From a virus: 43,075 bases of DNA. The DNA lies in the IMG/VR virus record IMGVR_UViG_3300002461_000205, positions 1-43,075 of that record. One strand, given 5' to 3'. Of the stretch, positions 1 through 43,075 are shown one piece after another (within the stretch, counting starts at the first letter, position 1; each line of letters opens with the position of its first letter). The notes under the pieces are model-generated. The model searched no databases and was not told the origin of the DNA. It worked only from the letters and a program-made list of their open reading frames with translations. The translations under genes and the position numbers were made by a program.

Positions 1-94
1 ACGCTGGGAATGTGTTGACTGCGGCGCGTCGCACGATCGCGACCACAACGCAGCAAAGCTAATTCTGGCGTCGGGGCGGAATGTCGCCCTCCAG
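1..94. repeat. Terminal direct repeat, copy 1. Identical to 42982..43075, so the contig ends overlap and the genome is circular or circularly permuted (unique length 42,981 bp).
   Basis: Compared base by base: 'acgctgggaatgtgttgactgcggcgcgtcgcacgatcgcgaccacaacgcagcaaagctaattctggcgtcggggcggaatgtcgccctccag' occurs at both ends. An ORF continues in frame across the join. Confidence 0.95.
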
Positions 95-121
95 CAAACG
101 GAAGTACGCAAAGCCGCGTAG
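1..121 (+). CDS. tnpB: 3' end of the TnpB-like ORF (partial). It continues 42023..43075 across the circular junction; codon phase starts at base 2 and the stop TAG is at 119..121.
   Basis: Translation from base 2 gives RWECVDCGASHDRDHNAAKLILASGRNVALQQTEVRKAA*. This contains the second CxxC of the zinc finger and the RuvC-III-type 'DRDHNAA' motif. Confidence 0.9.
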   Translation, partial: RWECVDCGASHDRDHNAAKLILASGRNVALQQTEVRKAA

Positions 122-148
122 GACATTAAACAACCACGGGAATAGGAA

Positions 149-40458: not shown

Positions 40459-41354
40459 TGGCGCGTATTCGCTCGATCAAGCCGCACTTCTTCCGCCACG
40501 AAGGACTGTACGAGTCCGAGCGGGAAACGGGTCTGCCGTTGCGATTAGCCTTTGCCGGCCTCTGGACCGCCGCAGATCGCGAGGGCCGCTTCATCTGGTC
40601 CGCGCGCAACCTAAAACTCGATGCGTTGCCTTATGACGATGATGTGGACTTCGCACGCGTGCTTGACGCGTTGTGGTCGCGTGGCTCGATCAAGAAGTAC
40701 GTGGTCGATGGCAAGGAATACGGCTTCATCCCAAGCTGGCTAGATCATCAAGTCATCAACAACCGCGAAGCACCCTCTAACCTCCCAGAACCCAATGAAA
40801 CCAATACGTTGACGCGTGAGGCACGCGACGATGACGCGTCGGTCACGCCACTTAAGTCTGCACAAGCGGAAGGGAAGGGAAGGGAAGGGGAAAGGAAGGG
40901 AACGGATAAAGGAACGCGTGACGCGCGTTCGTCCGAGGTTTTGTTTGAAGACTTCTGGAGGGCCTATCCGAAACGCAAGGGCGCAAACCCGAGAAAGACC
41001 GCTCTGGCGGCTTTCCTGAAGGCGCTAAAGGTCGGAGAAGACCCGCAAGCGATCATTGCCGGCGCGAAGCGATGCGCCGTGGCGGAATCTGAAAACATCA
41101 ACACCAAATATATCCCGCAGGCGGTCAAATGGCTGCACGACGAGCGCTGGAAAGATTACAACGCTGCCGCGATAGCCAGCCTTCCATCGCGGGAAGAGCA
41201 GGAAAGGGCGTGGCGCTTTGCCTTGGATTACAAGGAACGCAAGGGCTTCTGGGATTTACGATCGCCAGAGCCAGGGTCACGCGACTGTAAAATCCCCCCG
41301 GAATTTATTGAGCAATGGAAAGCCGAGCGCGCGAAGCAAGGAGCCACTCCATGA
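40458..41354 (+). CDS. Putative replication initiation/replisome organiser protein.
   Basis: '[17 protein letters not shown]...[17 protein letters not shown]' and the C-terminal '[15 protein letters not shown]...[17 protein letters not shown]' are common in prophage replication-module proteins (from memory). Confidence 0.5.
40868..40902 (+). repeat. 35-nt uninterrupted polypurine tract with GGGAA repeats.
   Basis: 'ggaagggaagggaagggaaggggaaaggaagggaa', read directly from the sequence. It is flanked by ACGCG(T) motifs within 40811-40930. Confidence 0.9.
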
Positions 41355-41770
41355 GCGATCGTAAGCGAAAGCTCATGAAAATTCGATGGGTTGGTATGAA
41401 AGACCGTTGCTACAATCCAAATTCAATACGCTGGGCCTCCTACGGAGCCAGGGGCATCAAGGTCTGCGAGCGATGGAAAGACTCATTTGAAAACTTCTTA
41501 GCCGACATGGGCTTTGCGCCGGATGGCAAAAGTATTGATCGCATAGACAACAATGGCGATTACGAGCCGGGGAATGTCCGTTGGGTATCGCCAGCAGGGC
41601 AGGCCCGCAACCGCAGCAACACCAAATTAGACCCAGACAAGGTTTTGGCAATCCGCCGCCGCCTTCGAGAAACTACTAACAAAACGCAGATCGCGAGGGA
41701 GTTTGGTGTGGGCCAAACGACCGTGACGAAGATCAGCAGGAATCTTACCTGGAAGGATATCCAGCCATGA
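41351..41770 (+). CDS. HNH_3-like 'DRID' protein with a C-terminal HTH. Paralog of 30111..30698.
   Basis: The ATG at 41351 overlaps the upstream TGA. '[57 protein letters not shown]' is followed by '[18 protein letters not shown]'. Confidence 0.6.
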
Positions 41771-41795
41771 TTTCCGCATCTGAGGAGGTCAAGTA

Positions 41796-42026
41796 ATGTT
41801 TGGCACTTATGGCGGCTGCGATATTCGATGCAGCGACTCAGCCTGTAGGCATGGCTGCAAGCGCTCTCAGATATTTGCGCCCGGAACCCATCCTCATCCC
41901 GGCGTAGCCCCCGGATATTTCCCTGATCAGCAATCTGTTGCGCTCAATCGTATCGCAGAAGCAATCGAGAAACTAGCAAAAGCTATTTCAACCCCACCCA
42001 ATGAACCGGAGGAGCGCGGTCGATGA
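41796..42026 (+). CDS. Hypothetical 76-aa protein with a Cys-rich N-terminus.
   Basis: GAGGAGG RBS. Sequence begins MFGTYGGCDIRCSDSACRHGCKR. Its stop overlaps the TnpB-like start (ATGA). Confidence 0.55.
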   Translation: MFGTYGGCDIRCSDSACRHGCKRSQIFAPGTHPHPGVAPGYFPDQQSVALNRIAEAIEKLAKAISTPPNEPEERGR

Positions 42027-43075
42027 GCGATTGCTACGTTACATATAAATTCCGTGTCAAGGATAGCAGTGCGAAGCGATGGCTGAAGCGCCATGCGATT
42101 GCGTGCAATCAGGTGTGGAATTTCTGTGTCGCCACGCAGCGCGAGGCGCAGAGGCGTTGGAATGGCGGTAAAACGGGCCGCTGGCCGTCCGCTTATGACC
42201 TTGGCCACCTTACCGCCGGATCGAGCGCAGAACTAGAAACGCTGGCCGACACGATAGAGCAGGTCTGCAAACAGTTCGTAGTTTCTAGAAACGCGCAAGG
42301 AAAGTGCCCGAAATTTCGCTCTAGCTTTGGCCGTAGACGCTCACTCGGCTGGGTGCCATTCCGATTTCAGAATGCGCGGGTTATGGGTGACGGCGTTAAA
42401 TATAGGGGCCGCGTTTATAAATTCTGGAAGTCGCGAGAGATCGTTGGTGAAATCAGGCGAGGAGCATTTGTTCAAGACGCACGCGGGCGTTGGTACGTTA
42501 CCTTCGTTTGCCGAGTTGAGGCGGTAGCGGGTCGCTCAACCAAAGAAGTCGGTATTGATTTGGGGCTCAAGTCTCTAGCCACCTGTAGTGATGGCGAAGA
42601 AATACCGGCTCTGCGCCTCTACCGCGCTCACGAGGCCGAGCTGGCCCGAGCCCAGAGAGCTAGAAATTATAAGCGCGTGCGTGCGATCAGCGCAAAGATA
42701 GCGAACGCCAGAGCGCACTACCTTCATAACGCCAGCACTAAGTTGGCGAATGAGAATAGTTTAATCGTCGTCGGCAATGTGAGCGCTTCCAGCCTTAAGC
42801 AAACGAGAATGGCAAAATCCGTCTCGGACGCCGGCTGGTCAATGTTCAGGAATATGCTGCGGTACAAATCTGCCAGGAGGCAGGCGGTATATATCGAAGC
42901 TGACGAACGATTTAGTTCCCAGACCTGTTCTGATTGCGGAAGCGTCAGCGGCCCGAAAGGACTGAAGGGTCTTGGAGTAAGACGCTGGGAATGTGTTGAC
43001 TGCGGCGCGTCGCACGATCGCGACCACAACGCAGCAAAGCTAATTCTGGCGTCGGGGCGGAATGTCGCCCTCCAG
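42023..43075 (+). CDS. tnpB: TnpB-like (IS200/IS605 OrfB family) RNA-guided nuclease homolog: the first 351 codons, continuing at 1..121 for 360 aa in total.
   Basis: Translated by hand with no stops. 'YKFRVKDSSAKRWLKRHAIACNQVWNFCV', RuvC-I 'EVGIDLGLKSLA', 'HNASTKLANENSLIVVGNVSASSLKQTRMAKSVSDAGWSMFRNMLRYK', and zinc finger 'SSQTCSDCG...RRWECVDCG'. It is absent from the ORF track because it has no stop inside the window. Confidence 0.9.
   Translation, partial: MSDCYVTYKFRVKDSSAKRWLKRHAIACNQVWNFCVATQREAQRRWNGGKTGRWPSAYDLGHLTAGSSAELETLADTIEQVCKQFVVSRNAQGKCPKFRSSFGRRRSLGWVPFRFQNARVMGDGVKYRGRVYKFWKSREIVGEIRRGAFVQDARGRWYVTFVCRVEAVAGRSTKEVGIDLGLKSLATCSDGEEIPALRLYRAHEAELARAQRARNYKRVRAISAKIANARAHYLHNASTKLANENSLIVVGNVSASSLKQTRMAKSVSDAGWSMFRNMLRYKSARRQAVYIEADERFSSQTCSDCGSVSGPKGLKGLGVRRWECVDCGASHDRDHNAAKLILASGRNVALQ
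42982..43075. repeat. Terminal direct repeat, copy 2 (identical to 1..94).
   Basis: Base-by-base identity with the window start. Confidence 0.95.

Follow-up and report, generated by a model that had tools for sequence, protein, structure and literature searches.

The stretch of DNA analysed here, referred to as the window (43,075 nt), is a virus record that IMG/VR classes as a complete virus genome carrying direct repeats at its termini. We found that its bases 1-94 are an exact copy of bases 42982-43075, i.e., a terminal overlap of 94 bases which holds codons 321-351 of a tnpB gene. Because of this exact end repeat and the class of the record, the window is a circular phage assembly that was opened inside tnpB. 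The gene lies on the plus strand, as do the RNA elements and the two flanking reading frames described below, and it crosses the circular junction: its first 351 codons occupy positions 42023-43075 (ORF list, Pfam) and its last 8 codons, together with the TAG stop (119-121), positions 95-121, so that translation across the junction yields a protein of 359 aa. The first hairpin of the original prediction, which was reported also for positions 43046-43075, does occur there, though as one locus read twice through the circular overlap and not as a second copy. A covariance model search detected no other copy of the scaffold in the window.

About 250 bp upstream of tnpB, we observed a gene encoding an HNH endonuclease with a C-terminal HTH (41315-41770); the two form a pair of adjoining nuclease genes, flanked by the replication module on one side and by packaging genes on the other. 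The start of tnpB is coupled (ATGA) to the stop of a preceding orphan ORF of 76 aa (41796-42026), and the operon is co-directional. Downstream, a spacer of 27 nt (122-148) separates the tnpB stop from the ATG at 149, as had been read from the sequence earlier, and the phage gene starting there (149-727) encodes a 192-aa protein with a weak match to DUF6456. The only match found for this protein (33% identity) is in a Bradyrhizobium phage, and it has no relatives in IMG/VR. No plus-strand terminator is located between tnpB and this gene, the first one downstream of tnpB being a strong intrinsic terminator at 984-1011 with an 11-bp stem and a T-run, and neither a promoter nor a plus-strand terminator consensus was found close to the scaffold. 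Since tnpB and the next gene are not parted by a terminator, an RNA derived from the 3' end of tnpB would need to be processed from a longer transcript. A blastn comparison of the region with 50,697 phage records returned short matches only, to the neighbouring HNH gene.

The original prediction spoke of a TnpB-like gene, and its product can be called TnpB based on two Pfam domains scoring above their cut-offs, OrfB_IS605 (49.6 bits, cut-off 30.5) and the zinc ribbon Cas12f1-like_TNB (77.4 bits, cut-off 26.3). Among solved structures, ISDra2 TnpB matches it best (E 2e-23). In the alignment of these two proteins, the position of the canonical RuvC-II glutamate is taken by Gly251, while a different glutamate, E295, is found six residues before the first CxxC; both G251 and E295 are invariant in 120 of 120 homologues. 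The same holds for D179, for the whole E295-x6-C302xxC305 motif, for C324xxC327 and for D334. The E-x6-CxxC motif defines the class of TnpB proteins with a rearranged RuvC-II glutamate (PMC10711439), for which DNA cleavage was shown in vitro in the case of TnpB2/TvTnpB (PMC10530073), and among the RIIr clades, especially RIIr-5, glycine replaces glutamate at the canonical site, as it does in the largest of them (PMC10691335). By these residues the phage protein fits the rearranged class with its predicted catalytic residues (D179, the relocated E295 and D334) and the four zinc-finger cysteines intact. It shares with TvTnpB and the RIIr proteins the glycine at the canonical site, the glutamate six residues before CxxC and, in its relatives, the association with IS605-type Y1 TnpA. 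Unlike them, the phage copy is solo, has no left end and resides in a phage. Among the approximately 4,900 detectable homologues none is closer to the phage TnpB than 66% identity. The sewage phage-like contig which carries the closest relative (L090) encodes a second TnpB (111-1223) and contains, on the minus strand at 65-216, a more distant match to our scaffold model (48.6 bits).

To define the RNA part of the element, loci of relatives were taken from viral, genome and metagenome collections, and 39 distinct 3' ends were aligned from the HDRD motif onward. The block shared by these ends stops abruptly after TTAA, or after TTAC or GTCAA in subgroups, and the flanks past TTAA, TTAC or TCAA are unrelated in every related locus. 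In the phage, the last bases of the right end are the TTAA at 126-129 (in the 39 ends, similarity stops after YTAA, TTAC or GTCAA). The elements of the scaffold follow one another in the order S1, S2, S3, pseudoknot 3' strand, AA and guide. S1 (74-89) is formed by positions 74-78 and 85-89 and closes a 6-nt loop (79-84), of which the last five bases, AAUGU (80-84), make up the 5' strand of the pseudoknot. The 3' strand, ACAUU (123-127), is placed past the stop codon within the conserved tail GACAUUAA (122-129). We recognize in this arrangement an H-type pseudoknot, in which the S1 loop pairs with five bases ending two bases before the guide. The stem and the pseudoknot are both perfect in the phage copy. 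S2 (90-102) is a mini-hairpin of positions 90-92 with 100-102, which has 3 bp and a 7-nt loop in the phage, whereas most relatives possess a 4-bp stem with a tetraloop (UCCU/AGGA, UCUU/AAGA, UCUC/GAGA or UCGC/GCGA). S3 (105-120) pairs 105-109 with 116-120 and ends on the first two stop-codon bases. In relatives it is the right-end hairpin of 8 bp, whose UUUAG loop usually contains the stop codon, in contrast to the phage copy with 5 bp and approximately 8 nt less. Further upstream, a tentative and weak hairpin spans the HDRD codons (28-43; 28-32 with 39-43) with 81% of cells paired; 3 of its 6 pairs show compensatory changes, one pair fails in 14 of the 34 sequences described below, and the signal is confounded by codons.

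Covariation was assessed with a covariance model built from the nested stems only, to which 34 distinct sequences, including the IS608-like subgroup, were re-aligned. The pseudoknot was left out of the model and added at counting, so its columns were not fitted to pairing. In this alignment the share of paired cells is 100% for S1 and 99.4% for the pseudoknot, each with 5 of 5 pairs changed on both sides; the values for S3 are 86.9% and 8 of 8 pairs, and for S2 87.5% and 2 of 4. The structure as a whole has 90.4% of its cells paired as compared with 74.4% in shuffles and 37-51% with the partners slid, and none of 500 shuffles reached the observed values. Compensatory changes were found in 23 of the 28 pairs. 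A MAFFT alignment of 25 distinct sequences gave the same picture for S1 and the pseudoknot (each 100% paired, each with 4 of 5 pairs changed on both sides). The phage copy carries the AAUGU/ACAUU version of the pseudoknot, and its relatives AACGU/ACGUU, AACAU/AUGUU, AACGC/GCGUU, AGUGC/GCAUU, AGCAU/AUGCU or GGCAU/AUGUC. RNAalifold, applied to positions -240 to -36 relative to the right end, returned no covariation except that of S1. When the entire window, its two ends and five canonical relatives were scanned against Rfam, the matches did not exceed chance level (glmS, L2 leader); a sub-threshold match to CRISPR-DR20 was recorded elsewhere in the sewage contig.

These data largely agree with the hairpins recognized by eye, whose motifs are all where they had been placed (CTGG 65-68, GGGCG 74-78, GAATGT 79-84, CGCCC 85-89, CCAG 91-94; TACGC 105-109, loop AAAGCC, GCGTA 116-120, with the TAG stop at 119-121). 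For the first hairpin, the core GGGCG/CGCCC is conserved and covaries; in turn, the outer CTGG/CCAG stem, paired in 56% of cells just as in shuffles, had to be rejected, and the bases on the CCAG side belong to the separate mini-hairpin S2 instead of extending the first hairpin. The second hairpin holds its place, being represented in relatives by the 8-bp stem with compensatory changes in every pair. In the folding and covariance analysis proposed at that time, the structure proved clearly conserved and covarying; the energy of a single sequence equals that of shuffles, and Rfam has no match. The pseudoknot 80-84/123-127, the most diagnostic feature of the element, had been missed.

The hairpins could also be by-products of the C-terminal coding sequence, as had been considered, or of chance. 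S1 does lie inside the coding sequence, and the fold of positions 60-150 as a single sequence is no more stable than shuffles (z = -0.09). The compensatory changes in most pairs and the failure of all shuffles to match them contradict both chance and codon constraint as the cause. Moreover, the structure extends beyond the stop codon, and the C-terminal peptide tails are wholly unrelated between subgroups in which the pairs persist. Depending on the subgroup, the ORF stops within S2, within the loop of S3 or at the terminal TAA, and the structure is kept throughout; in two loci tnpB reads through S3 and the pseudoknot strand, and the stop codon is the terminal TAA of the transposon end (L003:4078-4080 and L004:2119-2121). 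Given that the 3' strand of the pseudoknot is past the stop codon and that the ORF ends vary with the structure kept, the alignments indicate that the scaffold is not codon-driven, and we assign to chance or codon constraint the smallest probability of all readings considered.

The same architecture is found with entirely different letters in the IS608-like subgroup (L022, L054, L056, L057, L059, L061), where a 7-bp S2 contains the stop codon and the pseudoknot reads GGCAU/AUGUC. In a divergent subgroup (L046, L052, L053, L058, L069), the 3' ends are GGATAA, GGGTAA or GGCAA, and no complementarity between the S1 loop and the tail was seen in the same register; the guide RNA of these members probably folds differently. 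One locus (L023:3924-4082) has an insertion of about 27 nt in the S3 loop and a second TnpB-like gene approximately 2 kb downstream. In three others (L011, L012, L060) the HDRD motif is out of frame with the N-terminal match and the open frame counts only 240 codons, which suggests that their tnpB genes are frameshifted and the RNA scaffold is still kept.

As for the DNA of the transposon, insertion sequences of the IS608 type (IS200/IS605) are cleaved at TTAC on the left and at TCAA on the right and possess subterminal hairpins. The IS608-like subgroup of our relatives has just such ends, its left boundary reading TTAC and its right end GTCAA, and the main group follows the IS608 design with TCAT(C) and TTAA, its left and right hairpins being alike. 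One may ask if the conserved block is a DNA signal only, i.e., a right-end hairpin and a cleavage site for a Y1 transposase with no role as RNA. The resemblance of S3 to the left-end hairpin of relatives (GGAAA-CCCCGxC...GxCGGGG-AGGA) speaks for it, as does the end of the element at TTAA or TCAA, similar to the right end of IS608. Due to the former resemblance, S3 is very likely also the right-end DNA hairpin that TnpA would bind in mobile relatives. However, a DNA signal leaves unexplained S1 and the five covarying pairs between loop and tail, which are some 40 nt apart and reproduce the RNA pseudoknot of the ISDra2 structure (PMC10097598). Furthermore, it is the transposase-type S3 that has decayed in the phage copy, whereas S1 and the pseudoknot are still perfect. 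A role in DNA alone therefore seems very unlikely to us.

Unlike IS608, the phage copy keeps only its right end. We found no match to Y1_Tnp (TnpA) in the phage, while relatives carry a divergent Y1 TnpA (e.g., Y1_Tnp 137.9 bits in L020). Upstream of tnpB there is no similarity to relatives, an nhmmer profile of 11 left ends gave a best E value of 0.77 anywhere in the window, and no left-end hairpin was found at 41650-42100. With neither left end nor TnpA, the phage copy is unable to transpose. It shows signs of decay: S3 retains 5 of the 8 bp, S2 is down to 3 bp closing a 7-nt loop, and the left end and TnpA are gone. At the place expected for the left end lies the 76-aa orphan ORF, which in a search of 5.8 billion proteins matched nothing but itself; it may be either a recent or a spurious ORF on the site of the former left end of the element. 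This ORF has a strong ribosome site (GAGGAGG), and its codon-position GC is atypical, which is not decisive.

The similarity among relatives stops after the TTAA that ends at position 129, which sets the start of the guide at 130 (ACAACCACGGGAATAG, then GAAA). Taking as reference the guides of 16 nt in ISDra2 (PMC10097598) and 21 nt in TvTnpB (PMC10530073), we predict a guide of 16 nt (130-145), up to about 20 nt (130-149), which would cover the ribosome-binding region and the first base of the ATG of the downstream gene. This bears out the early expectation that any guide must lie in the spacer or over the start of the next gene. As in all TnpB elements, the predicted guide is the phage's own DNA flanking the element. 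The left-end boundaries of independent insertions in relatives read TCATC (TCATG once) and are followed by a hairpin resembling S3. For TvTnpB, the TAM and the motif bordering the left end are the same, and the RNA maps beside the right end (PMC10530073); since the TAM equals the left-flank motif under this rule, the TAM predicted for the TnpB clade studied here is TCAT(C). The predicted target would be TCAT joined to the guide sequence, i.e., the uninterrupted site, expected in related phages. In the phage itself the guide sequence is preceded by CATTAA, not TCAT.

We searched for such targets at several levels. In the whole window, the guide 20-mer has no match besides itself when up to 3 mismatches are allowed, and a 12-mer seed with up to 2 mismatches gave 3 matches against 2.35 expected, in accordance with the earlier view that spacer matches in the window are due to chance. 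Fifteen exact matches of the guide 16-mer in IMG/VR had unrelated flanks and no TCAT, so they were dismissed as chance. In 401 genomes of the bacterial class containing Shinella, 2 matches to the 20-mer with up to 2 mismatches were found as compared with 4 for the reversed control. Thus, the suggestion that a target is probably in the host finds no support, the guide being phage flank and the genome scan staying at chance level. Neither an empty-site allele nor a TAM-flanked target was present in the window, IMG/VR or the 401 bacterial genomes, and no sister phage with an empty site was found among 50,697 phage records or by searches with flanking proteins.

The position of the guide over the ribosome site and the start of gene 149-727, together with the replacement of the canonical RuvC-II glutamate by glycine, would also fit a nuclease-dead repressor of the TldR kind, exerting RNA-guided control of the downstream gene. 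Yet the alternative glutamate E295 is invariant, and the class to which it belongs cleaves DNA (PMC10530073); RuvC-III is intact, as is the zinc finger, and the protein shows neither the catalytic loss nor the C-terminal truncation by which TldR is recognized. Furthermore, the phage's own site is not preceded by the TCAT motif of the relatives' left-end boundaries. We therefore consider a repressor highly unlikely.

The closest described counterpart of the predicted RNA is that of ISDra2 from Deinococcus radiodurans (cryo-EM structures 8H1J and 8EXA), which likewise overlaps the 3' end of tnpB and stops at the right end. In ISDra2, positions -6 to -2 pair with the loop of stem 1; the resulting pseudoknot stacks on this stem, and a single unpaired A comes before the guide of 16 nt (PMC10097598). 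The phage element shares its order and geometry, in that the loop of the 5' stem pairs with 5 nt next to the guide; its loop consists of one base followed by the five pseudoknot bases, which run directly into the 3' strand of S1, and there are two unpaired A residues before the guide instead of one. The loop of the final stem ahead of the pseudoknot is UUUA in ISDra2 (PMC10097598) and UUUAG in the relatives of the phage element. A conserved pseudoknot beside the guide is known as well from the RNAs of IS607 TnpB and Fanzor2 (PMC10711439). The RNAs of ISDra2 and of the phage element share no sequence similarity, and in the latter a mini-hairpin (4 bp in relatives) takes the place of stems 2 and 3. 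The proteins differ in size, with 359 aa and a relocated RuvC-II glutamate in the phage as opposed to 408 aa in ISDra2, and so do the TAMs, predicted as TCAT(C) for the phage clade and TTGAT for ISDra2. The core supported by covariation counts 56 nt in the phage element and the ISDra2 scaffold 116 nt; for this reason, part of the functional RNA may have gone unrecognised.

Taken together, the covariation supports the notion that the phage element has a genuine omega-RNA scaffold and guide position, in a known class of TnpB and in an immobilised copy. The earlier proposal of an omega-RNA scaffold over the 3' end of tnpB is borne out by the 34 related elements, the RNA itself being predicted. 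We regard it as highly probable that positions 74-129 form the conserved omega (right-end) RNA core of an IS200/IS605-type TnpB element and that the guide runs from 130. The omega RNA would be excised from a tnpB transcript that continues into the next gene, and would bind the TnpB protein with its intact catalytic residues. The complex could then cleave DNA bearing the TAM TCAT(C) followed by ACAACCACGGGAATAG..., i.e., the site without the insertion, and spare the phage's own copy because CATTAA instead of TCAT precedes the guide sequence there. Such a nuclease could act in homing into, or exclusion of, related phages which lack the insert.

Whether the phage expresses the system in an active form is a separate matter, and we put the chances that it does only a little above even. 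The element may instead be a relic, carrying an omega RNA by descent and decaying without expression or without an active complex. The loss of the left end and TnpA, the shortening of S3 by approximately 8 nt, the weakened S2, the lack of close relatives of the phage copy and the lack of a detected target are all in line with such decay. Against it, the ORF of 359 codons is intact and has retained all invariant residues of the catalytic site and the zinc finger, S1 is perfect, as is the pseudoknot, and the start of tnpB is ATGA-coupled to the upstream ORF in a co-directional operon. On balance, a mere relic appears possible though rather unlikely.

A more far-reaching variant of the active TnpB system, which we put forward as doubtful, is that the immobilised element is kept as a homing or exclusion nuclease whose guide is hard-wired against the uninterrupted junction that precedes gene 149-727. 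Since the guide overlaps the ribosome site of this gene, maturation of the guide out of the polycistronic transcript or binding of TnpB to it would remove or mask this site, and loading of the nuclease would become coupled to expression of the downstream gene. A parallel is offered by the free-standing homing endonucleases of phages (T4 Seg/Mob, PMC13565253), which are also solo nuclease genes located between conserved phage modules; like them, the phage TnpB could cut relatives lacking the gene and then be copied in by repair. In contrast to Seg/Mob, specificity would come from an RNA guide and not from the protein, and homing is raised here as a possibility only. If the hard-wired reading is true, the 56-nt core would be among the smallest natural guide scaffolds of TnpB, and nuclease loading would be coupled to the expression of the next gene.

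Nothing found here is unexpected for TnpB, and the element can be viewed as an ordinary example of a known system. What had been a guess by eye is now a defined RNA: its stems, a pseudoknot and the boundary 129|130 are specified, and TCAT(C) is predicted as the TAM. The TnpB clade with the relocated glutamate is large, with approximately 4,900 homologues, and its guide RNA is absent from Rfam. Those who seek small editors may take an interest in a protein of 359 aa combined with a conserved RNA core of 56 nt. For phage biology, the element illustrates how the nuclease of a transposon can end up stranded in a phage genome and could there take on the behaviour of a homing endonuclease.
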